Below are positions 13,201 through 33,539 of a stretch of 64,000 nt of DNA, one piece after another. The notes below the pieces were generated by a model. It made no database searches. It was given only the letters and a program-made list of their open reading frames with translations, and had not been told where the DNA came from. This DNA comes from a virus (taxonomy: Duplodnaviria > Heunggongvirae > Uroviricota > Caudoviricetes). Location: IMG/VR virus record IMGVR_UViG_3300037312_000757; one strand, written 5' to 3'. Position numbers and translations under genes: made by a program. The stretch's first letter is position 1. Every line of letters begins with the position of its first letter.

Positions 13201-13410
13201 TTAGTCATTTCGTTGCCGGTCCATCCCGGCTGCACCTAATTCGATACGTCTTCGAAAACTTGATACTTCACTTTCTGGCATTGCTAGAGTAAACACTCGC
13301 GCATCACCATGATAGTGATTCGAGCAAAGACCATCGTGATACTCTCGAACCTTGCATTCGTTTGTCCGACCGTCATAGCAGACGTGAACGTCGATGATCT
13401 TTGCTTCCAT
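13201..13410 (-). CDS. hypothetical protein
   Basis: Short ORF. Confidence 0.55.
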   Translation of the reverse strand: MEAKIIDVHVCYDGRTNECKVREYHDGLCSNHYHGDARVFTLAMPESEVSSFRRRIELGAAGMDRQRND

Positions 13411-21982: not shown

Positions 21983-22058
21983 TGGTCTGGGTGGTGGGGA
22001 TCGAACCCACGGCCTCCGCGTTCCGAACACGGCCGTCTACCGCTGACATTACACCCAG
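21983..22058 (-). tRNA. tRNA-Pro(CGG)
   Basis: Loop TTCGGAA. Confidence 0.9.
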
Positions 22059-22066
22059 ATAGAAGT

Positions 22067-22144
22067 TGGTAGGATAGGTCGGACTCGAACCGACAATCGA
22101 CTTATTTTGAGTAAGCCAGGTATTCCAATTCCCTTCACTATCCC
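22067..22144 (-). tRNA. tRNA-Leu(CAA), short variable loop
   Basis: Loop CTCAAAA, A73, 5-nt variable region. Confidence 0.85.
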
Positions 22145-22149
22145 ATTGT

Positions 22150-22225
22150 TGGTCACCCCTGACAGACTTGAACTGTCGCTCCATGATCCCAAATCACGTG
22201 TGCTTGCCGCTAACACTAAGGGGAG
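22150..22225 (-). tRNA. tRNA-Pro(TGG)
   Basis: Loop TTTGGGA. Confidence 0.85.
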
Positions 22226-22262
22226 ATATGACGATGAGCCTAAAGGCTCATGTAAAGAAAGA

Positions 22263-22350
22263 TGGTGCCCAAGAGGGGACTCGAACCCCTACGCCCTAAA
22301 CGGGCCACGGACTCTCAATCCGTGATGTCTACCAATTCCAACACCTGGGC
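22263..22350 (-). tRNA. tRNA-Leu(GAG)
   Basis: Loop TTGAGAG, long variable arm. Confidence 0.9.
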
Positions 22351-22401
22351 AAAACAAAAGAGCCACAGGACATGGCTCTCTTTTAAAACTTGTACTGCTA
22401 C

Positions 22402-22656
22402 TTACTGCGGAACACGCTGCACATGGAACGTGCGCAACACTTTGTTGGGACCGCACGCCATGACAACTTTAAAAATTGCTTGCTGCTTAGTACGCGTATT
22501 GCGGAAGTAGCCAAAACCACATTCAACAATAGTACCGGTGACAGTAACGCGATTTGCACGACTAGATTCAGACAGCTTGATGGTGAACTGCTGTCCAACA
22601 GCTTGGGCACCAATCCGGTTCGCCTTCTCCATCAGTGCTTGATCCGCTGCGTTCAT
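22402..22656 (-). CDS. hypothetical protein
   Basis: GGAG RBS, palindromic promoter. Confidence 0.65.
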   Translation of the reverse strand: MNAADQALMEKANRIGAQAVGQQFTIKLSESSRANRVTVTGTIVECGFGYFRNTRTKQQAIFKVVMACGPNKVLRTFHVQRVPQ

Positions 22657-22675
22657 CGTCTGCTCCGTTTGTTTA

Positions 22676-22714
22676 CCATGTTCAAATGATACATTCACTT
22701 GAACATGGTTGCAA
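22676..22714 (-). promoter_or_regulatory. sigma70-like promoter with long palindrome
   Basis: TTGCAA-N17-TATCAT; CCATGTTCAA..TTGAACATGG. Confidence 0.8.
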
Positions 22715-22720
22715 GAGCTC

Positions 22721-23230
22721 TTAACTATCCAGCACTTTGTTCAACGCAGCAACACGTTCATGCAGGAAGTCGCGTTCGATAACTCGGCTGTCGTATGACA
22801 GTGGGCGTTTGCCCGCTTTGATTGCTTCGATGCGAGCTTGTGCCCTGCGAATCTCTGCTTCCAGCTTTGCTATCTCGTCTGCATCCTCTTTGTCGCACTT
22901 TGCGAATGCTTCGTCGAACTTCTTCTGCAGATACTTGCGGATACCTGCTTCATTGGTTGTCAAGTTTCCGTAGAAACGAGTTCCGTTGCTAATGTCACCC
23001 CACTTACGTCCATCGCGTTGACCGTACAGTTTGCGCTGTTGTTCGTAGTCAAGGCTGAGACGTTTGCTAACGTCAAGCCCAGGGGCAGTGGTGAAGCAAT
23101 AGTCGTCGGCGCTCGTGACAACTTCTTTCTTGAAGAATTGCAGAGTCTGCTTGTAGTGATAGATGTTGTCCCACAGGTCGATGGATTCGAAATTGATCAC
23201 CACATCGCCTACGTTGAACTTGCGCGTCAT
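22721..23230 (-). CDS. hypothetical protein
   Basis: AGGAG RBS. Confidence 0.7.
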   Translation of the reverse strand: MTRKFNVGDVVINFESIDLWDNIYHYKQTLQFFKKEVVTSADDYCFTTAPGLDVSKRLSLDYEQQRKLYGQRDGRKWGDISNGTRFYGNLTTNEAGIRKYLQKKFDEAFAKCDKEDADEIAKLEAEIRRAQARIEAIKAGKRPLSYDSRVIERDFLHERVAALNKVLDS

Positions 23231-23294
23231 GTTGTTCTCCTTGTTTACCATACTCACATGATAAGTTCATATGAACTTGGTAGCAAGGTTTATT

Positions 23295-23380
23295 TGGTAC
23301 CCTGGGAGGGATTTGAACCCTCACGCCTAAAAGGCCACGCGTTCTGAGCACGTGATGTCTACCGGTTCCAACACCAGGGC
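23295..23380 (-). tRNA. tRNA-Leu(CAG)
   Basis: Loop CTCAGAA, long variable arm. Confidence 0.9.
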
Positions 23381-23387
23381 ATTAAAA

Positions 23388-23510
23388 CTATTTTGCGAAT
23401 CGCCAGCCTACACACCACAGGTCAAGTCGCACAAACCATGTTCCGTTGTGTTTGCCGAAACCAAATCGGAGCATACGGTTGTCTTTGTCAAGAGATATTT
23501 TTGTTATCAT
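23388..23510 (-). CDS. small hypothetical protein (40 aa)
   Basis: MITKISLDKDNRMLRFGFGKHNGTWFVRLDLWCVGWRFAK fills inter-tRNA gap. Confidence 0.5.
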   Translation of the reverse strand: MITKISLDKDNRMLRFGFGKHNGTWFVRLDLWCVGWRFAK

Positions 23511-23518
23511 TTTGTTAA

Positions 23519-23596
23519 TGGTGGGTAAGGTGGGATTCGAACCCACAGGCGACTGCTTCTGAGGCAATCAGGTATTCCAATTCCCTTCACTTACCC
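23519..23596 (-). tRNA. tRNA-Leu(CAG), short variable loop
   Basis: Loop CTCAGAA, A73. Confidence 0.85.
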
Positions 23597-23601
23597 GCTA
23601 A

Positions 23602-23678
23602 TGGTGGACCCCAAGGGAATCAAACCCTTCACAGACGCATTGCAAGTGCATCTCGCCACTCTTGGTACATGGGAGCCC
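23602..23678 (-). tRNA. tRNA-Ala(TGC)
   Basis: Loop CTTGCAA, G3:U70. Confidence 0.85.
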
Positions 23679-23686
23679 ATAAAACT

Positions 23687-23763
23687 TGGTCGGGATTGCA
23701 GGACTCGAACCTGCAGCCTCCGGTTTCCAGAACCGGCCGTCTACCAATTGACATTAAACCCCG
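23687..23763 (-). tRNA. tRNA-Pro(TGG), C33
   Basis: Loop TCTGGAA. Confidence 0.85.
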
Positions 23764-23772
23764 AATAAAACT

Positions 23773-23900
23773 TGGTGAGTTTGGGTGGATTCGAACCATC
23801 CTGAGCGCTTTCGTATCGCCTCTTACCATGACATTTCCCCGTGCCTGGACACACCATAAAGATGCAAGCGGGAGTCGAACCTGCTTATGCCTCAAACTCA
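23773..23900 (-). ncRNA. tRNA-like RNA with two T-loop hairpins
   Basis: Acceptor GAGTTTG/CAAACTC-A-CCA; TTCGACT and TTCGAAT hairpins. Confidence 0.75.
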
Positions 23901-23906
23901 TATCAG

Positions 23907-23984
23907 TGGTCGGTGTGGTGGGATTCGAACCCACAAGCATTTGGCTCTCGACCAAATAGGTATACCAATTCCCTTCACACACCG
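23907..23984 (-). tRNA. tRNA-Leu(GAG), short variable loop, C33
   Basis: Loop TCGAGAG, A73. Confidence 0.8.
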
Positions 23985-23992
23985 ATAAAACT

Positions 23993-24092
23993 TGGTGGAT
24001 ACGACGGGGTATTCTCCCGCACATGGGCCCCGCAGGGGCAGGCGCATATTTTGCCCGAGCCGATGTAGTTTTCAGGACTCCCTAACATACCC
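23993..24092 (-). ncRNA. tRNA-like RNA with non-canonical T loop
   Basis: Acceptor GGGTATG/CGTATCC-A-CCA; GCGGG-AGAATAC-CCCGT. Confidence 0.65.
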
Positions 24093-24100
24093 ATAAAACT

Positions 24101-24174
24101 TGGTACCCCAGCAAGGAATCGAACCTTGGTATGCGCCGTGTAAGGACGCCGTTCTACCATTGAACTACAGGGGT
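24101..24174 (-). tRNA. tRNA-Val(TAC)
   Basis: Loop CTTACAC. Confidence 0.9.
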
Positions 24175-24184
24175 GTTGAAAAAG

Positions 24185-24262
24185 TGGAGCGGGTAGGGAG
24201 AGTCGAACTCCGCGATCTTCAGCTTGGAAGGCTGCTGGACGCCCCTTGTCCTGTCTACCCGC
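24185..24262 (-). tRNA. tRNA-Gly(TCC), atypical D arm
   Basis: Loop CTTCCAA, U73. Confidence 0.8.
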
Positions 24263-24271
24263 ATTGAAACT

Positions 24272-24345
24272 TGGTGGGGGCGCTAGGGATTGAACCTAGA
24301 CCTGCTGAGTCAGAGTCAGCCACGCTGCCATTACGCCACGCCCCT
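24272..24345 (-). tRNA. tRNA-Gln(CTG)
   Basis: Loop CTCTGAC, 1:72 mismatch. Confidence 0.9.
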
Positions 24346-24354
24346 ATTAAAACA

Positions 24355-24475
24355 TGGTGCCTAGAACTGGGATCGAACCAGTGTCCTCGAAACAAACCAA
24401 GAACCACCGCGAGACGCAGGTGCGTACACCTGTACGGGTTCAGGATTTCGTGCTCTACCTCTGAGTTACCTAGGC
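24355..24475 (-). ncRNA. tRNA with ~53-nt anticodon loop
   Basis: Normal acceptor, D and T arms; stem CGAAA/TTTCG encloses long insert. Confidence 0.75.
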
Positions 24476-24482
24476 AAGGTAT

Positions 24483-24559
24483 TGGTGCCGCCCCGCGGAT
24501 TCGAACCGCGCTCTCCGGATTTTCAGTCCAGCGCTTTCACCAAGATTAGCTTGAGCGGC
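24483..24559 (-). tRNA. tRNA-Phe(GAA)
   Basis: Loop CTGAAAA. Confidence 0.9.
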
Positions 24560-24621
24560 ATTAAATTCTGTTTCCGGTTACGGGTTCCGGATGCTGCCCT
24601 ATCATTACAGCCGGTTTAAAA

Positions 24622-24696
24622 TGGTAGGTCGTAAGGGAGTCGAACCCCTGTCATCGCGTTCGTAGCACGATATTCTTTCCGTTGAACTAACGACCC
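24622..24696 (-). tRNA. tRNA-Arg(ACG)
   Basis: Loop CTACGAA. Confidence 0.9.
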
Positions 24697-24702
24697 ATTA
24701 AC

Positions 24703-24775
24703 TGGACCCACGTGGTGGAGTTGAACCACCGTAATTCGGCTTCGTAGACCAAACACCAGCTCCGCTGGACGTGAG
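24703..24775 (-). tRNA. tRNA-Arg(ACG), shortened D arm
   Basis: Loop CTACGAA; CCAGC-GGA-GCTGG D region. Confidence 0.7.
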
Positions 24776-24785
24776 ATTAAAAACT

Positions 24786-24861
24786 TGGGGTGACTAGTGG
24801 GAATCGAACCCACATCTCCGGATTCACAGTCCAGAACTCTAACCATTGAGCTATAGCCACC
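24786..24861 (-). tRNA. tRNA-His(GTG)
   Basis: Loop CTGTGAA, G-1/C73. Confidence 0.92.
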
Positions 24862-24883
24862 ATCGACTAAACAACCTTGAAAC

Positions 24884-25001
24884 TGGAGTGGGCGCCGGGA
24901 TTCGAACCCGGGTCTCGTCCTTGGAATGGAAGAATGATTGCTGAACGTTTCCTTGTCAGGAAAGCTTTTCTTACGCGTGCTAACCACTACACCACGCCCA
25001 C
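24884..25001 (-). ncRNA. CCA-ending tRNA body with CAGCAA handle hairpin replacing the anticodon
   Basis: GTGGGCG/CGCCCAC-T-CCA; insert GCTTTCC-TGACAA-GGAAACGTTCAGCAA. Confidence 0.8.
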
Positions 25002-25019
25002 ATTTAAAACTAAAATCAC

Positions 25020-25094
25020 TGGGGTGAGTTGGAGAATCGAACTCCAGTCGCCTGGTTCACAGCCAAGCATTCTAACCACTGAACTAATCTCACC
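25020..25094 (-). tRNA. tRNA-His(GTG)
   Basis: Loop CTGTGAA. Confidence 0.9.
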
Positions 25095-25104
25095 ATTGAA
25101 ACCG

Positions 25105-25434
25105 TTACAGCTTGTCAGGATATTGCGCATCGATATGATCGATGTACGCAAGCGGACTCATACCTGGTTCAAGGTCATGAACCTTGCTGAACCCGTTTTC
25201 CTTCGTGACAAGTGCATCCTCAGGCTTGACTGCACCAGCATACTTTCTGAAACCAGGCTTGTTCATCAACTTGCCTGTTGCTGGGTCAATCGACCCCCAA
25301 TCCGTCCAGTCAGTTTTGCTCTGACCGTCAATCGGTTCTACGAAATACGACTTACCAGTACGTTGACTTGTTACAATGAAGCGTCCGGTTTCGTCTGTAT
25401 TTGTGAGAAACCGTTTGCGTAGGTCGGGGTCCAT
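25105..25434 (-). CDS. hypothetical protein
   Basis: AAGGA RBS. Confidence 0.7.
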   Translation of the reverse strand: MDPDLRKRFLTNTDETGRFIVTSQRTGKSYFVEPIDGQSKTDWTDWGSIDPATGKLMNKPGFRKYAGAVKPEDALVTKENGFSKVHDLEPGMSPLAYIDHIDAQYPDKL

Positions 25435-25461
25435 ATTGGAATCCTTCTTGTTAGAGTTAAT

Positions 25462-25536
25462 TGGTGCCCTCGAGGTGAATTGAACACCTGTATCCGACAT
25501 ACCAAGTCGGCGTAATTGCCACTATACGACAAGGGC
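25462..25536 (-). tRNA. tRNA-Thr(GGT)
   Basis: Loop TTGGTAT. Confidence 0.88.
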
Positions 25537-25541
25537 GTTTC

Positions 25542-25952
25542 TTATTTCCAAGGAGTTGGTGGAGGAACAACAGCATTTTCTGGGGCTGGAACTCCAACAC
25601 TACCAAAGTCTGCTGGTGAACAAATCTCCAGGTACTCCATGTCAGGCGAGTAATCATACAAATAATGCACTAGCCCGGGAACTTGATGCACAACATCGCC
25701 TGCTTCAACAAGCGTAATTGTGTCGCCATACATGAACTTGGCCCAGCCTTTGTTCATGATGACAATTTGAAAATCTAAAACATGCTGATGCCAACCAGTA
25801 CCTTCTGTAGGTGGTTTGTTGGCTTTCACCAAGTGCGCAATAACCTTACCGTCAGTTGCGTCCTTGATACCTAAATCCTTGTACAGGAAAAAATCACGCA
25901 GTCCGTCACCTTTCCATTCAGTGTCGGCTGGTTTTACATGCGAAAATTTCAT
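25542..25952 (-). CDS. cupin-domain protein
   Basis: GWHQH..FQIVIM.KGW..F and H-x-L cupin motifs. Confidence 0.8.
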   Translation of the reverse strand: MKFSHVKPADTEWKGDGLRDFFLYKDLGIKDATDGKVIAHLVKANKPPTEGTGWHQHVLDFQIVIMNKGWAKFMYGDTITLVEAGDVVHQVPGLVHYLYDYSPDMEYLEICSPADFGSVGVPAPENAVVPPPTPWK

Positions 25953-26012
25953 GAGTTCTAACCTCAAAAAGTTAAATTATCATTATAAACTTCTTGGTTA
26001 GAACTACAATAT

Positions 26013-26087
26013 TGGCGCACCCTACAGGAATCGAACCTGTATCCAACTCTTAGGAGGAGCTGATTCTATCCGTTGAACTAAGGGCGC
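26013..26087 (-). tRNA. tRNA-Arg(CCT)
   Basis: Loop CTCCTAA. Confidence 0.9.
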
Positions 26088-26093
26088 GGCAGC

Positions 26094-26444
26094 TCAAACA
26101 ATCACTTGTTCAAGTTTATTCCACACATCATCGTACAATACGTAAAGCTTGCTTCCATCTACTTCGATTGGAATCGCTTTACTACCAAGACCAGCCATCC
26201 CCGCAACCTCACCAGGTATGACCATACGCCCTGTCACTTTGATGATGGCCGGCGCACGAATGATCCTGATAACATTGTCGATCACGTTACCATCAGCATC
26301 TTTTTTACACGCTGGGTGGTAGATTCCCACTCGTACTTGAATATCTTTCTTGGTCTTCCAGACCGTACCTTTCTTCAGTAATGAACGAATACTACCGGTC
26401 ATGATAAACCTCAAAGGAAAATCATATGATACGGTAGCATTCAT
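26094..26444 (-). CDS. hypothetical protein (start uncertain)
   Basis: ORF between tRNAs. Confidence 0.6.
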   Translation of the reverse strand: MNATVSYDFPLRFIMTGSIRSLLKKGTVWKTKKDIQVRVGIYHPACKKDADGNVIDNVIRIIRAPAIIKVTGRMVIPGEVAGMAGLGSKAIPIEVDGSKLYVLYDDVWNKLEQVIV

Positions 26445-26461
26445 TTAATGTCAAACAAAAC

Positions 26462-26536
26462 TGGTACCCGAAGTTGGAATCGAACCAACGACCTACGCGA
26501 TGTCAACGCGTTGCACTACCGCTGTGCTATCCGGGT
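26462..26536 (-). tRNA. tRNA-Val(GAC)
   Basis: Loop TTGACAT. Confidence 0.9.
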
Positions 26537-26543
26537 GTTGAAA

Positions 26544-26620
26544 CTGGAGCGTCATGAGAGGATCGAACTCCCGACCTGCTGGTTCGTAGCCAACTGCTCT
26601 GTCCACTGAGCTAATGACGC
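26544..26620 (-). tRNA. tRNA-Arg(ACG)
   Basis: Loop CTACGAA. Confidence 0.9.
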
Positions 26621-26628
26621 ATAAATCT

Positions 26629-26703
26629 TGGCATCTCGTATGGGAGTCGAACCCATCTCTGCAGATTGAAAGTCTACTGACCTAACCGATAGTCGAACGA
26701 GAT
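26629..26703 (-). tRNA. tRNA-Glu(TTC)
   Basis: Loop CTTTCAA. Confidence 0.9.
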
Positions 26704-26710
26704 ATAAAAC

Positions 26711-26785
26711 TGGAGTGCCATACGGGAGTTGAACCCGTCTTCCCACCTTGAAAGGGTGGTGTCCTAACCGATAGACGAATGACAC
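26711..26785 (-). tRNA. tRNA-Glu(TTC)
   Basis: Loop CTTTCAA. Confidence 0.9.
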
Positions 26786-26794
26786 ATAAAAATC

Positions 26795-26869
26795 TGGAGC
26801 CCCATGTGAGAATCGAACTCACATTTCTGGATTACGAAACCAGTGTTCTAGCCATTAAACTAAAGGGGC
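26795..26869 (-). tRNA. tRNA-Thr(CGT)
   Basis: Loop TTCGTAA, 31:39 mismatch. Confidence 0.75.
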
Positions 26870-26874
26870 AATTA

Positions 26875-27129
26875 TTACATATCAAAAAGAATATGACTCA
26901 CAAATGCGACAAGTTGTCCTTGTTGCAAGCCAGATCCTAATTTGTGACCAAAAACTGCTGAAAGATTCTTTATGGTTCCAGTTGTACTGCCAACCTGGAC
27001 TATACCATTATTTTGTGAAGCTTGCTGCAAATCGCTAAACACTTGGTCAATGCTAACCTGTTGTGTTGCGATTAACTCAAAGTGATTTCCTTGTTGCTGC
27101 GTTACTACGTTGGATGGAACTTGATACAT
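26875..27129 (-). CDS. hypothetical protein (Q-rich)
   Basis: AGGAG RBS. Confidence 0.65.
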   Translation of the reverse strand: MYQVPSNVVTQQQGNHFELIATQQVSIDQVFSDLQQASQNNGIVQVGSTTGTIKNLSAVFGHKLGSGLQQGQLVAFVSHILFDM

Positions 27130-27170
27130 AATTATCTCCTTTTGTGGAGATAATATACCAACCACCAATG

Positions 27171-27890
27171 TCAGTCAAATTTCATTTTTCTACCAACCTG
27201 CCATCCATTTTGCAGGTATGATTCTAAATCTGTTTTGGCAATCTTCTTTGCCGCTTTCTCTACGATTGAGAATATCCAACAAGACCCAAACTGAGAATTT
27301 TTCTCACCTTGCTGGTGTTTGTTTTTCTCAAACGTTTTTGTTCTTTTCAGCTTTGCTTCTGAAGTGTGTGCTTTCCTTGAAGCTTCAATTTGCCGCGTTC
27401 CGCCTTTAACAAACAGGGTGTGAGCAATTGTTCCGTCGGCATGTAAGTCAGTTAAACGCTTTGCTGACGCATCCAGATGCTCCTGGTAACGTTTGGTGTC
27501 TGATTTGAACTTCTGCATACGTGCAGGGCCACCGACCTTACCAGCGTCACTTGCGGTCTTTCTTTTAAGCTCTGGGTTTTCATTTATATGATCAAACCCA
27601 CCTTCCCCACCCACTTTTAAGTTCATACAAAGCGGATCAGTCAGTTGCTCTTCGCAAACTAACTCAGCTTCTCGAGCTTTCAAGGATTTGCGATCAGGTA
27701 AAAACTCTAGAATCTCACAAACATGATTATCTTTACCATGTTTGTTAATCGAATACCAAAGCCTTTTACCGGATCCCACGTAACCGTCATTAAGGTCATC
27801 TGTGGAATGCATACCGATGTAATACTTACCAGTTACTATACACGTTGTTTTGTATATGTAATGGTATTTTCTTCTTGCTGCTTGACGCAT
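27171..27890 (-). CDS. GIY-YIG homing endonuclease (Seg-like)
   Basis: YIYKTTCIVTGKYYIGMH..YVGSG, E..E, MNLKVGG; GCTAAATA upstream. Confidence 0.88.
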   Translation of the reverse strand: MRQAARRKYHYIYKTTCIVTGKYYIGMHSTDDLNDGYVGSGKRLWYSINKHGKDNHVCEILEFLPDRKSLKAREAELVCEEQLTDPLCMNLKVGGEGGFDHINENPELKRKTASDAGKVGGPARMQKFKSDTKRYQEHLDASAKRLTDLHADGTIAHTLFVKGGTRQIEASRKAHTSEAKLKRTKTFEKNKHQQGEKNSQFGSCWIFSIVEKAAKKIAKTDLESYLQNGWQVGRKMKFD

Positions 27891-27942
27891 TTGCCAAATC
27901 TCCTTTCGGAGTATTTAGCGGAAATGCGTTGATTTTGTTCAG

Positions 27943-28017
27943 TGGCGTCCGATACGGGAGTCGAACCCGTCTTTCCAGGTTGAAAGCCTAGCGACCTAAC
28001 CGATAGTCGAATCGGAC
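27943..28017 (-). tRNA. tRNA-Glu(TTC)
   Basis: Loop CTTTCAA. Confidence 0.9.
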
Positions 28018-28026
28018 ATGAAATCT

Positions 28027-28102
28027 TGGTACTGTCAGTGGGACTTGAACCCAACATTTGCTGATTGAAAGTCAGCGGTCCTAACCTTTAGACGATGACA
28101 GT
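28027..28102 (-). tRNA. tRNA-Glu(TTC)
   Basis: Loop CTTTCAA. Confidence 0.88.
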
Positions 28103-28107
28103 ATTAA

Positions 28108-28229
28108 CAGGATGGTATTTTTTACGTGCTCCCATTACACCACAGCGGGACCCTACCCCACTGCCGGGACTCGAACCCGGACCTTTCTTTTTTCCAGAAG
28201 AATAAAATAAATTTGCTGAAACCATCCAA
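28108..28229 (-). ncRNA. circularly permuted tRNA mimic with CAGCAA handle
   Basis: GGATGGTTTCAGCAA, then T arm, closed acceptor CAGTGGG/CCCGCTG, D arm, then ACCATCCTG. Confidence 0.85.
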
Positions 28230-28235
28230 GGGTTC

Positions 28236-28325
28236 TGGCAGTGGGAATGGGATTCGAACCCATGGGGCTTTTTAGGACCCGACGCCTTTCCAAGACGTTG
28301 CAATAGACCGCTCTGCCATCCCACT
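28236..28325 (-). tRNA. tRNA-Ser(GGA)
   Basis: Loop TTGGAAA, long variable arm, G73. Confidence 0.9.
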
Positions 28326-28360
28326 ATAAATTCAAATCACCAAGCCACGAAGAAAGGCGA

Positions 28361-28552
28361 TTACGATTGTGCTGCGAAACCTTCTTCACGTGCGAATGCC
28401 ACGACGCCACGGACTGCTTCGAGTGCGAACTCACCATGGAGTCGCTCCACGCGTTCTGCGGGGGTGGTCTCACGTCCAAGAGTCTCAGGGCGAGCCAGTA
28501 CGAGCGTATGCAACGGCAGTGCGGAAACGCGTGCAAATGTCAGCGTCGTCAT
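28361..28552 (-). CDS. hypothetical protein
   Basis: AGGAG RBS. Confidence 0.5.
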   Translation of the reverse strand: MTTLTFARVSALPLHTLVLARPETLGRETTPAERVERLHGEFALEAVRGVVAFAREEGFAAQS

Positions 28553-28595
28553 GATTGCTCTCCTTGAGAAAATGGTTAAAAGGTACTACGTTAAT

Positions 28596-28687
28596 TGGCG
28601 GTAGCGGAAGGATTTGAACCTTCGGGGCTTTTTAGGACCCGCTAGTTTTCGAGGCTAGTGCAATAAACCGGACTCTGCCACGCTACC
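28596..28687 (-). tRNA. tRNA-Ser(CGA)
   Basis: Loop CTCGAAA. Confidence 0.9.
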
Positions 28688-28694
28688 ATAAAAC

Positions 28695-28895
28695 TTACTT
28701 GGTGTCTTTCGATTGCTCTTCGCGCTGTGCGCTAATGAAAATGCAACCTTCAGCACCACATCCACAGACGATATGTCGTTCACGTACAATCTTGTCTGCG
28801 TCTTTGATTTCACCACGGTTACGAAGTGAATTGAAAACTTCCGTTGTATGGCGTGCTGCTGCCATATCTTTCTGCGATAAGCGTCTTCCGCTCAT
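28695..28895 (-). CDS. hypothetical protein (CGCG..GC)
   Basis: ORF between Ser tRNAs. Confidence 0.55.
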   Translation of the reverse strand: MSGRRLSQKDMAAARHTTEVFNSLRNRGEIKDADKIVRERHIVCGCGAEGCIFISAQREEQSKDTK

Positions 28896-28912
28896 ATCGT
28901 TCTCGTTATTAG

Positions 28913-29002
28913 TGGAGGAAGGTAAGGGATTCGAACCCTTGGGGCTTTTTAGGACCCGACTGTTTAGCAAACAGTTACAATAGACCGCTCTGCCAACCTT
29001 CC
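28913..29002 (-). tRNA. tRNA-Ser(GCT)
   Basis: Loop TTGCTAA. Confidence 0.9.
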
Positions 29003-29012
29003 ATTTAAAACT

Positions 29013-29108
29013 TGGTAGTCCCCCAGGGATTCGAACCCTGCCGTCGCAGCCCATCTAGCCGCTCTCCCGAGGATATAAATCTCAGCCGCTCAACCAGAGC
29101 TAAGGACC
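29013..29108 (-). tRNA. tRNA-Ile(TAT)-like with long variable arm
   Basis: GGTCCTT acceptor, A73, loop TTTATAT. Confidence 0.65.
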
Positions 29109-29119
29109 ACTGCAAAAAT

Positions 29120-29197
29120 TGGAGCTCCGAGCTAGATTCGAACTAGCGGTTTTACTGCTTTGCAGGCAGTTGCCTTGGACCTCTCGGCCATCGGAGC
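29120..29197 (-). tRNA. tRNA-Cys(GCA)
   Basis: Loop CTGCAAA. Confidence 0.9.
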
Positions 29198-29206
29198 GTT
29201 GAAAAC

Positions 29207-29282
29207 TGGAGCGGGTAACGGGGTTCGAACCCGTGACGTCTTGCTTGGCAAGCAAGTACTCTACCAACTGAGCTACACCCGC
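29207..29282 (-). tRNA. tRNA-Gly(GCC)
   Basis: Loop TTGCCAA, U73. Confidence 0.92.
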
Positions 29283-29293
29283 ATGGTGTATAA

Positions 29294-29356
29294 CTGGATG
29301 CACTTTAACGAGGTCAGATTAACGGTCTGGTGTTTGAAGTTGCTGTAGGCATCCAA
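29294..29356 (-). ncRNA. minimal CAGCAA-handle RNA
   Basis: GGATGCCTACAGCAA..GTGCATCCAG. Confidence 0.8.
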
Positions 29357-29362
29357 AACTGA

Positions 29363-29414
29363 CAGGAAGCACTTAGTCATGTAAGAAATGAGTAAGATTG
29401 CTGTAGGCTTCCTA
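29363..29414 (-). ncRNA. minimal CAGCAA-handle RNA
   Basis: GGAAGCCTACAGCAA..GTGCTTCCTG (compensatory change). Confidence 0.8.
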
Positions 29415-29426
29415 AAACTTGAATTC

Positions 29427-29681
29427 TTATAACAATCAGCACTAGGTTTGCAGTTTACCGCAGTGGAGGAATTAACTCACGGTGATCAAGCCGTTACTTC
29501 ATTCCATTCTCACGACCAAACTCAGGACCAAACAAGGAGGCGCGTCGGGGGCTCCCGAAACTCGTAAGCGGCTTAACTTCAGTGTGATACACTGTCCACA
29601 CATACCTACCCTTGCCCTCTGAGCGCTTTACCACTTGCACTGCAAAAACGGCCAGTTACTTCCTAACGCTGACTGCTATAA
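29427..29681 (-). ncRNA. ~255-nt structured RNA with 20-bp closing stem
   Basis: TTATAGCAGTCAGCGTTAGG pairs with CCTAGTGCTGATTGTTATAA; promoter TTGCAT-N16-TATCAT at 29687-29714. Confidence 0.7.
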
Positions 29682-29722
29682 AAACTATGATACACTTTGT
29701 TGCCATTTATGCAACAGAAAAC

Positions 29723-29814
29723 TGGCAGAGCTGCAAGGAATCGAACCCTATTGACTACCACCCACCGATTATTAAAGTCGCTGGTTTTGGAGACCAGTAG
29801 CGGGGAACAGCTCT
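29723..29814 (-). tRNA. tRNA-Trp(CCA) lacking D arm, expanded variable region
   Basis: AGAGCTG/CAGCTCT-G-CCA; loop CTCCAAA; only 10 nt between acceptor and anticodon stem. Confidence 0.75.
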
Positions 29815-29840
29815 GTTGAAAACTTGATACTACTAAAACT

Positions 29841-29917
29841 TGGTAGGGGCGGAGAGATTCGAACTCTCGACTTCCTGATTAAGAGTCAGGCACTCTGGCC
29901 AACTGAGTTACACCCCC
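29841..29917 (-). tRNA. tRNA-Lys(CTT)
   Basis: Loop CTCTTAA. Confidence 0.9.
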
Positions 29918-29924
29918 ATTGAAA

Positions 29925-30055
29925 TACCATTTGATGTGATCCCCATCACATCACCTGTTGAACACGATTCTGAAGCTACTTGCACATATAACGCTGAGTA
30001 GGCGTCACGTGCTTTTACTTACCGTGGGTGATCAGGTTAACCATATCAAATGGTA
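29925..30055 (-). ncRNA. ~130-nt stem-closed RNA
   Basis: TACCATTTGAT terminal inverted repeat. Confidence 0.55.
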
Positions 30056-30067
30056 CTTACGGAAACT

Positions 30068-30144
30068 TGGTGGGGGCACTGGGATTCGAACCCAAGCCTG
30101 ACGGATTAAAAGTCCGCTGTGCTAACCGCTAACACCATACCCCC
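30068..30144 (-). tRNA. tRNA-Lys(TTT)
   Basis: Loop CTTTTAA. Confidence 0.9.
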
Positions 30145-30150
30145 ATTGAC

Positions 30151-30225
30151 TGGTTGGGGCAGTGGGGATCGAACCCACGACCTTGAGATTAAGAGTCTCA
30201 TGCTCTACCGCTGAGCTATACCCCA
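30151..30225 (-). tRNA. tRNA-Lys(CTT)
   Basis: Loop CTCTTAA. Confidence 0.9.
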
Positions 30226-30245
30226 GTAAACTGGACTACAGAATC

Positions 30246-30380
30246 AGTAAGCTGGTACTTTCAATCAAGTACAGTGTACAGCTTACGACTCCCATGACTA
30301 CATTTTTGTCTGGGAGTCGTCGAACTTAATCTGCTACGACTCCCAGAAGTTTCGATGATTTTCGTTTCATCACAAACTCC
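30246..30380 (-). promoter_or_regulatory. leader-peptide RNA switch (MKRKSSKLLGVVAD, 30326-30370)
   Basis: AGGAG RBS; mutually exclusive 1:2, 2:3 and 3:4 helices. Confidence 0.65.
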
Positions 30381-30571
30381 TAAAGAGAAAATTAAATTAA
30401 AGTGTCCGAAAAATGTACACAAATTTCGGACAAAACCAACAACAAAGCCTGCATTTCCATCAGAGCACTTGCAAAAGCAAATGGTGATTCACGCAACTAG
30501 ACGTGATGGACTGGTTTAGCTCAAAGGCCAACCTAGGAGTATCAGGTCCCACCTATGGTTATTGGTAAACT

Positions 30572-30648
30572 TGGTTGCGCGAAGCAGGAGTCGAACCTGA
30601 TATCACCAGCTTATGAGACTGGTATGTAAACCGTTTCACTCTCGCGCG
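30572..30648 (-). tRNA. tRNA-Met(CAT), initiator-like C1:A72
   Basis: Loop CTCATAA. Confidence 0.8.
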
Positions 30649-30656
30649 AAACTTGT

Positions 30657-30737
30657 TGGTACCCCGCAAGAGATTCGAACTCTCACCCGAAGACCGGAAC
30701 CTAAATCCGGCGCGTCTACCAATTTCGCCAACGGGGC
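30657..30737 (-). tRNA. tRNA-Leu(TAG)
   Basis: Loop TTTAGGT. Confidence 0.9.
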
Positions 30738-30772
30738 ATCAATGCAGACCTACTAACGTCTGCACGAAATAC

Positions 30773-30850
30773 TGGTTGCGGAGAGATGGATTCGAACCAT
30801 CGACCTCCAGCTTATGAGGCTGGCGAGCTACCGGGCTGCTCTATCCCGCA
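30773..30850 (-). tRNA. tRNA-Met(CAT), fMet-like D arm
   Basis: AGAGCAGCCCGGTAGCTCG; loop CTCATAA. Confidence 0.85.
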
Positions 30851-30859
30851 ATTGAATTC

Positions 30860-30935
30860 TGGTTGTCAGTACTGGACTTGAACCAGTGACCTATCGCTTA
30901 TCAAGCGAGTGCTCTACCAACTGAGCTAACCGACA
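30860..30935 (-). tRNA. tRNA-Ile(GAT)
   Basis: Loop TTGATAA. Confidence 0.9.
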
Positions 30936-30939
30936 ATTG

Positions 30940-31168
30940 TCGCATCGCACTCGCTAAGGGCAACATTAAGCATCCACGCGCTAGAACAAGTTCCTGGCGT
31001 ATTCTCCGAATGTCATCCCTTACCAGCCATCATGCGCTGCAATGCATTTGCGCATAATGGACGAGATGCTACGTCCCTAACTGTAACCAAGTCTATTACC
31101 AACAAAACGTAGCAATACTGTTGGCACACATTGGCTCTGTTACAGCCCAGCAAGTTACCCTGCTAGTT
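30940..31168 (-). ncRNA. putative ~230-nt multi-hairpin RNA
   Basis: Promoter TTGCAA-N16-TACAAT (31175-31202), no ORF, several hairpins. Confidence 0.45.
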
Positions 31169-31210
31169 TGTTGCATTGTACAGCTTTTGCCATACTTTGC
31201 AAACACAACA

Positions 31211-31284
31211 TGGTTGTTCCAGAAAGAATCGAACTTTCGTTAATGGCTTATCAAGCCACCGTTCTACCATTGAACTATGGAACA
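31211..31284 (-). tRNA. tRNA-Ile(GAT)
   Basis: Loop TTGATAA. Confidence 0.88.
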
Positions 31285-31294
31285 ATTGAATTCT

Positions 31295-31369
31295 TGGTGG
31301 TTATAGATGGAGTCGAACCATCATTACCGGCTTATGAGACCAGTGTCCTAGCCATTGAACGATATAACC
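31295..31369 (-). tRNA. tRNA(CAT), elongator Met or Ile2
   Basis: Loop CTCATAA, G1:C72. Confidence 0.8.
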
Positions 31370-31373
31370 ATAA

Positions 31374-31429
31374 CTGGATGCACTTACGTTTTCACCGAAA
31401 GAAAGTATAAGATTGCTGTAGGCATCCAA
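31374..31429 (-). ncRNA. minimal CAGCAA-handle RNA
   Basis: GGATGCCTACAGCAA..GTGCATCCAG. Confidence 0.8.
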
Positions 31430-31449
31430 AACGGGTATTCGACATCAAA

Positions 31450-31557
31450 CTACCAAAAGTAGCGATACAACCAACCACTTTCTTGTTTATCAGTCATACA
31501 TTCGATTGGCGCTAATTCCCACACATCATTTTCAGTTCTGCGTCGAAATAACTGCAT
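31450..31557 (-). CDS. small protein (35 aa)
   Basis: AGGAG RBS; MQLFRRRTENDVWELAPIECMTDKQESGWLYRYFW. Confidence 0.5.
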   Translation of the reverse strand: MQLFRRRTENDVWELAPIECMTDKQESGWLYRYFW

Positions 31558-31575
31558 ACCAATCTCTCCTAAATG

Positions 31576-31650
31576 TGGCTCCAGAACCAGGGATCGAACC
31601 TGGGACCAACGCATTAACAGTGCGCTGCTCTACCGCTGAGCTATTCTGGA
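31576..31650 (-). tRNA. tRNA-Asn(GTT)
   Basis: Loop CTGTTAA. Confidence 0.92.
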
Positions 31651-31751
31651 ATTGAAACAGGACTGCATCGCGTACTCAGGCATTCGACACATTCAAATGC
31701 TTTCCTTTCCTTACTCTGCGGAATACCGCTAGAGATGATGCAGCAAAAACT

Positions 31752-31830
31752 TGGCTCCGCACACTGGGATCGAACCAGTCTAGCCACTGATTAACAGTCA
31801 GGTCCATGCACCTTGCTCGGATTCTGCGGA
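31752..31830 (-). tRNA. tRNA-Asn(GTT), atypical D arm
   Basis: Loop CTGTTAA. Confidence 0.82.
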
Positions 31831-31849
31831 ACTGTCATACAACAAAACT

Positions 31850-31925
31850 TGGTGCCTGGAGACGGAATCGAACCGCCGACACCCTGATCTTCAGTCAAGT
31901 GCTCTACCAACTGAGCTACCCAGGC
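31850..31925 (-). tRNA. tRNA-Phe(GAA), G37
   Basis: Loop CTGAAGA. Confidence 0.9.
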
Positions 31926-31996
31926 AAAGACCATAACGATGAGAACCTAACACACGCCTTAGCAGTGCGTACCCGCTCAACGTTACGATCAAAATT

Positions 31997-32071
31997 TGGC
32001 GATGCGTAGGGGATTCGAACCCCTGACTCCCGGCTAGACAGGCCAGTACTCTACCGCTGAGTTAACGCACC
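31997..32071 (-). tRNA. tRNA-Asp(GTC), U37
   Basis: Loop CTGTCTA. Confidence 0.88.
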
Positions 32072-32128
32072 ATGCGGGAGCAGCTTCTACTCCCCGCGCC
32101 CTGCTGTCGAAACAACAGGACTAAAACT

Positions 32129-32203
32129 TGGCGACCCTACGGAGAATCGAACTCCGTTCCCCAGATAGACAGTCTAGGATAATAACCAATATAAGATAGG
32201 GCC
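32129..32203 (-). tRNA. tRNA-Asp(GTC), U37
   Basis: Loop CTGTCTA. Confidence 0.85.
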
Positions 32204-32211
32204 GTGAAACT

Positions 32212-32299
32212 TGGTGAAGTGTGAAGGAATCGAACCTAATAACCAACCACCCCAGTATCATGGTAACGGGTTTACAATCCGCTCTGGGGAACACACTCC
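32212..32299 (-). tRNA. tRNA-Tyr(GTA) lacking D arm
   Basis: GGAGTGT/ACACTTC-A-CCA; loop TTGTAAA; GTTCCCCAGA replaces D arm. Confidence 0.75.
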
Positions 32300-32315
32300 A
32301 TTAAAACTTGTGCAA

Positions 32316-32468
32316 TTTGCTTTGCTCATCCGGGTGGGATCGAACCACCTTTTTATCCTCGAACATTTAGGCGCATTCGATAGCAACACGCTGGAATTAC
32401 GCTACCTTTAGCAGTCTTCTTCTGCGCTTCGGCCGAATAACCTGCGCAGTGCGGATGATAAAAGCAAA
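32316..32468 (-). ncRNA. ~155-nt RNA with T arm and extended acceptor-like stem, no CCA
   Basis: TCATCCG/CGGATGA; GGTGG-TTCGATC-CCACC. Confidence 0.65.
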
Positions 32469-32479
32469 CTACTGAAACT

Positions 32480-32563
32480 TGGTGGAGGATCCAGGATTCG
32501 AACCTGGGAACCCGAAGGAACGGATTTACAGTCCGCCGGCTTTAACCACTCACCCAACCCTCC
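32480..32563 (-). tRNA. tRNA-Tyr(GTA)
   Basis: Loop CTGTAAA, long variable arm. Confidence 0.92.
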
Positions 32564-32632
32564 ATTGCAACTTTACAACAAATGAAACACAAGTGCCTGC
32601 ATAGCTGTTATCCTCTTGTTTCATTTTACATC

Positions 32633-32722
32633 TGGCGGAAGCGGTGAGATTCGAACTCACGGACCTTTTTAGGGATCGACGGTTTTCAAGACCGCTGCCT
32701 TAACCCACTCAGCCACGCTTCC
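32633..32722 (-). tRNA. tRNA-Ser(TGA)
   Basis: Loop CTTGAAA. Confidence 0.92.
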
Positions 32723-32730
32723 ATTAATTC

Positions 32731-32804
32731 TGGCAGGAGCGCCAGGGTTCGAACCTGAACTACGTGAGTCAAAGTCACGGGTGCTACCATTACACTACGC
32801 TCCA
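32731..32804 (-). tRNA. tRNA-Gln(TTG)
   Basis: Loop CTTTGAC. Confidence 0.9.
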
Positions 32805-33067
32805 ACAGCGCTTACAAAGCTGATTACAACCACGGGTTTGAACCGCGATCAACTTAGTAAGCAACCTGCACAACGGTTCAGCACAAACATCATGCTGCTG
32901 CGTCATGCAGTTGTGTCTAGGCCTAATTGCCCTAGACTGACGGATTTTATACATTCGTTTGCAAACGAATCTTCATCCTCGCCGCCGCCCATTTAGCCAG
33001 TTTTTACGTGCGCGCCTGGGATCTCGTTTCCCGTCTACACGTTACTACAAAGAACATTGATGCCTTA

Positions 33068-33154
33068 AAACACGAAACCCCGGAAACTTTCGTTTACCGG
33101 GGTGCCTTGTTGTTGAGACTGCGCTAACTTATGCGCTGCCTCCTTGGCACCCCT
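33068..33154 (-). terminator. attenuator: terminator with overlapping antiterminator
   Basis: CCCCGG-TAAACGAAAGTTT-CCGGGG-TTTCGTGTTTT; GGGGTGCC in leader pairs with GGCACCCC. Confidence 0.85.
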
Positions 33155-33269
33155 TCCAATCTGACAGACTAATGCTATTCTTCTCACCATTACCGAGCCA
33201 ATAAGCTACAGGCATGGACGCTTTCTGTCCTTGCTGCTGCTCTGGTCGATAAAAGTTAAATGAATGCAT
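33129..33269 (-). CDS. attenuator leader peptide (46 aa)
   Basis: GAGG RBS; MHSFNFYRPEQQQGQKASMPVAYWLGNGEKNSISLSDWKGCQGGSA. Confidence 0.75.
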   Translation of the reverse strand: MHSFNFYRPEQQQGQKASMPVAYWLGNGEKNSISLSDWKGCQGGSA

Positions 33270-33327
33270 TTCGTCCTCAAAAAGGAAGTTAGTTAAACAA
33301 CACGCCGTTCATTACAGCGTGCATCGT

Positions 33328-33356
33328 ACTCTAAATCTACTGCTTTGCGAAGTCAA
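33328..33356 (-). promoter_or_regulatory. sigma70 promoter of leader/tRNA array
   Basis: TTGACT-N17-TAGAGT. Confidence 0.75.
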
Positions 33357-33423
33357 CAACTTTTTGTGACAACGCGGAAATCTTTTTGTTGCGCGCAACA
33401 CTGTTCGCTGCAACATGTTTCAC

Positions 33424-33539
33424 ATTCTATTTAGCAAACTATGGCAAGTCAATAACTTTTTAACCATCTTGCTAAACTTTTTGCAAACGCTGCATCAGCA
33501 ACGTGTTCACATTCTATTTAGCAAACTGACATCAGTTAA
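33424..33539 (-). promoter_or_regulatory. two repeated sigma70 promoters overlapping GCTAAATA
   Basis: TTGACT-N17-TAGAAT and TTAACT-N17-TAGAAT; 20-bp direct repeat cacattctatttagcaaact. Confidence 0.7.

Follow-up and report, generated by a model that had tools for sequence, protein, structure and literature searches.

The tRNA array of a huge phage is preceded by what is probably a leader-peptide (ribosome-mediated) attenuator, which would couple transcription of the tRNA genes to decoding speed; for the locus in the window (the whole 64,000-nt stretch of DNA that was analysed) we put the probability of this reading at roughly 0.7. An attenuator cassette was also found before 13 tRNA blocks in five related huge phages (both arrays of G002 and 11 blocks in G004-G007), and our confidence in this class of attenuator is higher for the relatives than for the window locus. 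Taken alone, the window locus is a well-formed attenuator-like structure with predicted translation; for this locus we infer that the ORF is translated, which way the switch works, how it behaves without a ribosome and what triggers it in nature. A sequence-only reading of the locus had proposed that the position of the ribosome on the leader picks antiterminator or terminator, and this core is supported by the anatomy of the locus and by the 13 cassettes of the relatives, with their match between leader codons and tRNAs.

The window corresponds to minus-strand sequence of an IMG/VR virus record of 523,836 bp that has direct terminal repeats, and the DNA sequencing runs that bear it are rhizosphere and soil metagenomes. 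It contains 52 tRNA genes, all on the minus strand, as called by ARAGORN and in agreement with Rfam. A dense array (21983-32804, minus strand) holds 46 ARAGORN tRNAs with 31 anticodons, which together decode 49 of the 61 codons; it begins with Gln-UUG (32804-32731, minus strand, ARAGORN). An Rfam search of the region returned tRNAs only, other families being absent even at E-values up to 1. No relatives were found for the upstream 338-aa protein, and no tRNAs near the relatives of the neighbouring 604-aa protein.

The sequence-only reading had described a promoter, a ribosome-binding site, a 46-codon leader, an intrinsic terminator and the tRNA array, and all of these are present in that order on the minus strand, at the coordinates given here. 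Three tandem promoter-like sites, all sigma-70-like, precede the leader: P1 (TTAACT-17-TAGAAT, 33511-33539), which is the first of the three copies and has a repeat motif in common with P2; P2 (TTGACT-17-TAGAAT, 33424-33452); and P3 (TTGACT-17-TAGAGT, 33328-33356), the site that had been named before. A soil-metagenome contig from a related strain, ~95% identical to 33187-33341, links 33341 to 33447 via 9 other letters, so this strain seems, from its sequence, to be without one of the tandem promoter copies. A 9-bp hairpin (33300-33322) is predicted at the 5' end of the P3 transcript. The leader ORF (33129-33269, minus strand) comprises 46 codons and a TAA stop codon, and a Shine-Dalgarno (SD) sequence, GAGGA, lies 4 nt 5' of its ATG (33274-33278).

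Most of the ORF is predicted to fold into a long imperfect hairpin of ~135 nt (33153-33287, -55 kcal/mol), which joins the half of the ORF with the SD and AUG to the 3' half and abuts the 5' arm of the antiterminator, into which it may reach by 3 bp. In the predicted fold, the SD and AUG are buried when this hairpin is complete. Analogous hairpins are present in the leaders of the relatives. As to its role we can only speculate: it could act as a pause, as an anti-antiterminator, or as a limit on loading to one pioneering ribosome.

The claimed complementarity between the end of the leader and the terminator is borne out. GGGGUGCC in codons 39-42 (33146-33153, minus strand) can pair with GGCACCCC (33099-33106), which overlaps the 5' arm of the terminator by 5 nt, so that antiterminator and terminator are predicted to be mutually exclusive. 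Enclosed by the antiterminator is an inner hairpin (33115-33142; 33142-33133 pairing with 33124-33115), with one mismatch and one G-U pair, which holds the TAA stop codon (33131-33129) in its loop. The intrinsic terminator (33067-33103, minus strand) consists of a hairpin (33103-33077) with a GAAA-capped tip and a bulged U (-16.7 to -20.8 kcal/mol), followed by a U-tract (33076-33067) in UUUCGUGUUUU. A simple scanner overlooked it, owing to its bulge and long loop. The fold of the 291-nt region has a z-score of -6.99, none of 200 shuffles being as stable, and the antiterminator duplex was equalled by 3 of 200 shuffles. Between the terminator and the first tRNA lies a spacer of 262 nt (32805-33066, minus strand) with moderate structure (z = -2.4), in which no promoter-like site was found on the minus strand (33066-32805) and no Rfam family was matched. 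The spacer contains a T-arm-like stem-loop, CGCGG-UUCAAAC-CCGUG (window 32831-32847, minus strand), at which neither ARAGORN nor Rfam calls a tRNA.

We propose the following switch. Transcription would start at the three tandem promoters, and a ribosome would load on the 46-codon leader as RNA polymerase advances. In classical terms, the long hairpin would be formed by segments 1 and 2, with GGGGUGCC as segment 2 at its foot, GGCACCCC as segment 3, and the 3' arm of the terminator as segment 4. With smooth decoding, the ribosome would reach the last codons and the stop codon, inside the antiterminator, and cover the 5' arm (33153-33146); the terminator hairpin (33103-33077) could then fold, and transcription would halt before the tRNAs. 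When cognate charged tRNAs are scarce, the ribosome would lag within the first ~35 codons, and the free 5' arm would pair with 33106-33099, blocking the terminator and letting the polymerase enter the tRNA array. The newly made tRNAs would relieve the stall, closing a feedback loop.

Predicted folds were compared with this scheme. The two end states of 33160-33067 are nearly iso-energetic (-35.5 against -37.4 kcal/mol), and therefore folding order and ribosome position should decide between them. The antiterminator (2:3) is the best fold for as long as segment 4 is still unmade. Masking the footprint of a ribosome at the stop codon (33146-33117) gave the terminator fold, and masking that of a ribosome with its A site at codon 34 melted the foot of the long hairpin and made the antiterminator the best fold. 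With the A site at codons 4-30, the full-length equilibrium fold was still the terminator. Since the full-length leader thus favours the terminator at equilibrium in most masked states, the model rests on co-transcriptional kinetics: that fast decoding would lead to termination, and slow decoding in about the first 35 codons to read-through, is suggested by the folding order during transcription and not by the full-length equilibrium folds. The ribosome-free state is ambiguous, the prefix fold giving read-through and the full-length equilibrium fold, in which 3 bp of the long hairpin intrude into segment 2, giving termination.

The composition of the window leader does not by itself mark it as a sensor. 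Its peptide does contain 19 of the 20 amino acids, lacking only Thr, as had been counted in the sequence-only reading; as a signal, however, this count fails, being matched by 8-10% of random or real 46-residue stretches (P 0.08-0.10). Its codons cover 24 of the 31 array anticodons, compared with 20.0 ± 2.6 in gene windows (P = 0.078), and 40 of the 46 are readable by array tRNAs, compared with a background of 39.0 ± 3.2. Because the array reads 49 of the 61 codons, leader composition cannot discriminate in the window. In an RNA-library contig from a related strain, codon 32 of the leader is changed from AGC (Ser) to ACA (Thr) (window 33174-33175), and the Thr gained there is the sole amino acid missing from the window leader.

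Homologs of the window leader were sought at several levels. Among 5.8 billion proteins, the leader peptide matched none but itself; blastn against phage records gave no relatives, and an exact-pattern scan of viral contigs gave no match. Comparison of the five related phage records with the window gave matches at the level of tRNAs only and no relative of the leader. Scans of viral and metagenome sequences with terminator patterns returned nothing beyond G002 itself and generic terminators in unrelated contigs, one of which sits behind a 5S-like sequence. No close relative of the window leader was thus found, and there is therefore no covariation for that exact sequence. In the related phages, the leader codons of 13 blocks match the tRNAs that follow.

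The relatives were found with the large terminase (TerL, L024:1285-2865), and five records were examined (G002 and G004-G007). They are 415-608 kb in length, with TerL 60-69% identical to that of the window phage (69% for G002), and each carries ~50-70 tRNAs. Both arrays of G002 are preceded by a cassette like that in the window and unrelated to it in sequence, in the order promoter, SD, ORF of 36 or 42 codons, antiterminator, terminator, tRNAs; the promoter shares the motif TTTGCTAAATAGA. The 3' arm of the G002 antiterminator again overlaps the 5' arm of the terminator, the arms being divergent in sequence yet complementary, and in both leaders the stop codon lies in a small hairpin loop, as in the window. 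One of the leaders (L114:11987-12097) is rich in Ser (TCG for 4 of 5 Ser codons), Tyr, Glu, Gly and Cys; the tRNAs that follow are Ser(CGA), Tyr, Glu, Tyr, Glu, Glu, Gly, Gly and Cys. The other (L116:2801-2929) starts K-P-F-F-H-Q-P-V-V-K and is without Glu, Tyr and Cys, and is followed by tRNAs for Pro, Val, Gln, His, Phe, Gln, Lys and more. The first tRNA of the window array is homologous to the third tRNA of this second G002 array, and therefore the window leader is the positional counterpart of L116:2801-2929.

In G004-G007, 11 blocks are equipped with a promoter and SD, a short ORF and a strong terminator. The tRNAs of these more distant relatives are grouped in amino-acid-specific blocks with their own specialised leaders, whereas the window phage and G002 have mixed arrays with generalist leaders. 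For example, a leader with the sensor RRLATLRLKTLRLKW (L118:6949-7050) stands before three Arg, five Leu, one Ile, four Lys and one Trp tRNA; one with SSYSYCYSSHCSSS (L120:8877-8972) before four Ser tRNAs, Tyr, one uncalled tRNA and His; one with NLLQQLQL (L126:7220-7282) before Gln and Leu tRNAs; one with SDEREED (L125:5723-5794) before Asp and three Glu tRNAs; and one with LYPMPCYP (L128:5801-5887) before Tyr, Pro, Leu, Pro, Met, Cys, Pro and Cys. At several of the relatives' loci the gap between the terminator and the first tRNA is 26-48 nt, which leaves no room for a separate promoter, and the tRNAs must therefore be reached by read-through. Pairs of strong tandem terminators before the tRNAs were observed at L123 (6813-6900) and L132 (5814-5878) and, on the minus strand, at L126:7120-7191 and L129:11385-11486.

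Leader-to-tRNA matching was evaluated statistically. Single-locus binomial tests against the amino-acid background of the phage gave P values of 1e-4 to 1e-7. In a re-pairing test on 14 leader/array pairs from six phages, in which the permissiveness of each array was subtracted and the match summed over the 14 pairs, the true match was ~6 SD above random re-pairings, and 0 of 100,000 re-pairings reached it, at both the amino-acid and the codon level; this test is conservative, because G004 and G006 share three homologous pairs. The codon match to downstream tRNAs is strong in the 13 related leaders, whereas in the window it is at background level. A stalled ribosome must leave the 5' arm of the antiterminator free, and sensor codons are therefore expected upstream of it. 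Over the ten specialised leaders, the downstream tRNA set is matched by 157 of the 200 residues that precede the arm (79%), as against 33 of 116 (28%) from the arm onward (Fisher P = 2e-18).

When the 3' arm of the terminator was withheld, its 5' arm paired with the last third of the ORF at nearly every locus, and the energies of the antiterminator duplexes, compared with shuffles, gave a combined P of 6e-9 (6e-8 with one leader per homologous family). The homologous leaders L118 and L129, of the Arg/Leu/Lys type, have kept their sensor codons despite three synonymous changes and the insertion of 3 nt in frame; they also differ by one Asn-to-Thr change and by the replacement of one antiterminator pair, C-G by U-A, and their tails are divergent.

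Other explanations of the window locus were weighed against these results. A constitutive, partly leaky terminator could set the tRNA level or insulate the array, the 46-codon frame being incidental and unsensed. It would account for a leader whose composition and codon match are at background and for a terminator that is favoured at equilibrium, and such ORFs often arise by chance (58 with 30 aa or more in 5 kb). We nevertheless consider it unlikely, as it leaves unexplained why the tRNA sets of the relatives are reflected in their leaders, why the matching codons lie upstream of the antiterminator arm, why a complementary arm surrounds the stop codon in three unrelated sequences, and why evolution has preserved the frame. 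Translation is likewise incidental if the ~135-nt hairpin and terminator form a structured non-coding RNA, either a small RNA or an element for the processing or stability of the tRNA precursor, with the frame as a by-product. The SD at correct spacing and the absence of any Rfam match even at E = 1 speak against this, as do the comparable hairpins of the relatives, which surround clearly codon-selected frames, so that structure and translation coexist there; despite the very stable fold (z = -7), the pairing between the two halves of the ORF, and the restriction of RNA-library contigs to leader and terminator, a non-coding RNA seems to us distinctly improbable.

A micro-protein gene of the ordinary kind, ending at a terminator of its own and only incidentally read through into the tRNAs, appears more improbable still: promoter, SD, ORF and terminator are arranged as in any small gene, but a search of 5.8 billion proteins gave the peptide no homolog, the relatives' peptides are unconserved beyond the sensor codons, and the tRNAs have no separate promoter, the gap behind the terminator being only 26-48 nt in relatives. 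Two further candidates were rejected. For a T-box riboswitch (Stem I specifier, T-box), neither the gathering threshold nor a cut-off relaxed to E = 1 gave an Rfam match. For an rrn-type boxA/Nus leader, the match at 33302-33290 has 3 mismatches, and such matches occur at chance rate (26 observed, 22.8 expected).

The extent of control by the proposed attenuator was then considered. Gating of the entire array, as claimed in the sequence-only reading, is more weakly supported: promoter-like sites lie inside the array on the minus strand, at 27178 (10/12) and 26454 (11/12), beside small protein ORFs. No strong internal terminator was seen within the array. Most safely, the leader would govern the promoter-proximal ~23 tRNAs (32804 to about 27943). 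Outside the window, a Val-Ala-Pro cluster of the same phage (G000:C1:337620-338110) has the P1/P2 promoter motif (GTTGTTGACT ... CTAAATAGAATGTGAAAC) ~50 nt from its first tRNA, without a leader ORF or terminator; attenuator control is therefore not universal in this phage. Within the array, one weak candidate for a second codon-matched leader was found (30370-30326, p = 0.03 against the next six tRNAs). This 14-codon ORF (30326-30370, minus strand) is preceded by a good SD, encodes Lys at three of its first seven positions, and lies 100 nt before three Lys tRNAs; a terminator-like hairpin (30432-30403) is located upstream of it, not behind.

Two RNA-library contigs fall in the leader/terminator region and none on the adjacent gene. 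The first, an adapter-flanked insert over 33265-33136, has 5 differences, and the second (33122-32986) spans the terminator with 0 differences; positions outside these contigs are uninformative. They come from two rhizosphere libraries of different studies, each represented by one shallow contig that carries no information on strand, ends or levels. They give at most a weak hint of leader expression, with carry-over of DNA as a possible source.

The proposed attenuator can be compared with known systems. The enterobacterial leader-peptide attenuators of amino-acid operons (trpL, hisL, leuL, pheL and the multivalent thrL and ilvL) likewise consist of a promoter, a short translated leader with regulatory codons, and a mutually exclusive antiterminator and terminator; ribosome position decides, and the multivalent leaders sense several amino acids together. 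The targets in the phage, however, are tRNAs instead of biosynthetic enzymes, which would allow the product to relieve the stall directly; the stop codon is placed within the antiterminator, in the loop of a small hairpin; and, in this textbook comparison, the window leader samples 19 amino acids in place of a single-residue run and has no sequence relationship to those leaders. Attenuation of the pheST type, in an aminoacyl-tRNA synthetase operon, also places a leader-peptide attenuator on a gene of the translation apparatus and not of biosynthesis; its target is a protein enzyme and its signal a single amino acid, whereas the phage targets are RNA genes in arrays. An attenuator-like leader has reportedly been described at the E. 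coli tRNA genes pheV and pheU. T-boxes resemble the phage locus in making read-through depend on the state of one specific tRNA by a choice between antiterminator and terminator, but they bind uncharged tRNA directly, have no ORF and carry conserved motifs, and the phage locus has no Rfam T-box match.

The trn operon of Anabaena sp. PCC 7120, which had been offered as a conceptual analogue, is a long tRNA array induced by translational stress, and the description of it as repressor-controlled is accurate: the RHH repressor TrcR binds to direct repeats that span the -10 box and the transcription start (PMC8421152, PMC10272220). It shares with the phage locus a long accessory tRNA array and, if our reading is right, increased expression when translation is impaired; its control is by repression and not attenuation, and neither a leader peptide nor a terminator is mentioned (PMC8421152, PMC10272220). 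vmlR and yxjB of B. subtilis are reported to have antibiotic-sensing leader-ORF attenuators, in which a ribosome stalled in a short leader ORF blocks the terminator and thus serves as a sensor of translation stress (PMC9226507, PMC6851288). Stalling there reportedly depends on the drug and the nascent peptide, whereas the phage relatives point to codon/tRNA supply. No description of attenuation of tRNA genes was found in the full-text literature searched; older reports in subscription journals may exist.

Phage tRNA genes are usually viewed either as constitutively expressed aids to codon usage or as a reserve against tRNA-cleaving host defences, and to our knowledge the control of their expression is largely unknown. 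We tentatively hypothesize, at somewhat less than even odds, that huge phages possess a modular tRNA homeostat working as a closed loop, in which blocks are autoregulated by leaders made of their own codons and sense which decoding capacities are missing, the window phage having a fused generalist leader. The phage would then transcribe just those tRNAs that the infected cell lacks, whether through codon-usage mismatch, starvation or host anticodon nucleases acting as a defence, and the generalist leader with its 19 amino acids would open a near-complete array under any elongation slowdown. Host tRNA cleavage may be a trigger, as had been proposed. If true, textbook leader-peptide attenuation would extend to a new target class, tRNA genes; tRNA supply would be self-regulating, and phages would gain a direct sensor of host decoding capacity. 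The cassettes, which are short and modular, occur in the relatives as natural specificity variants for Arg/Leu/Lys, Ser/Tyr/Cys/His, Asp/Glu and Gln/Leu. Such cassettes also offer an annotation rule for the "empty" DNA before phage tRNA arrays.

Two further sequence features were observed. The same 16-nt tail, GGGGTTTCGTGTTTTA, stands behind the leader terminators of the window and of G002 and recurs behind GC-rich hairpins in unrelated metagenome contigs (L139-L147); by its distribution, it looks like a common terminator ending and not a marker of this phage group. A tRNA with a UCA anticodon (labelled SeC by ARAGORN) is present in the window's phage (G000:C1:190515-190591), one with a CUA anticodon (labelled Pyl) in G007 (L135, oriented position 13230), and one that ARAGORN gives a four-base anticodon in G002 (L116:15231-15318); these may be suppressor or recoding tRNAs.
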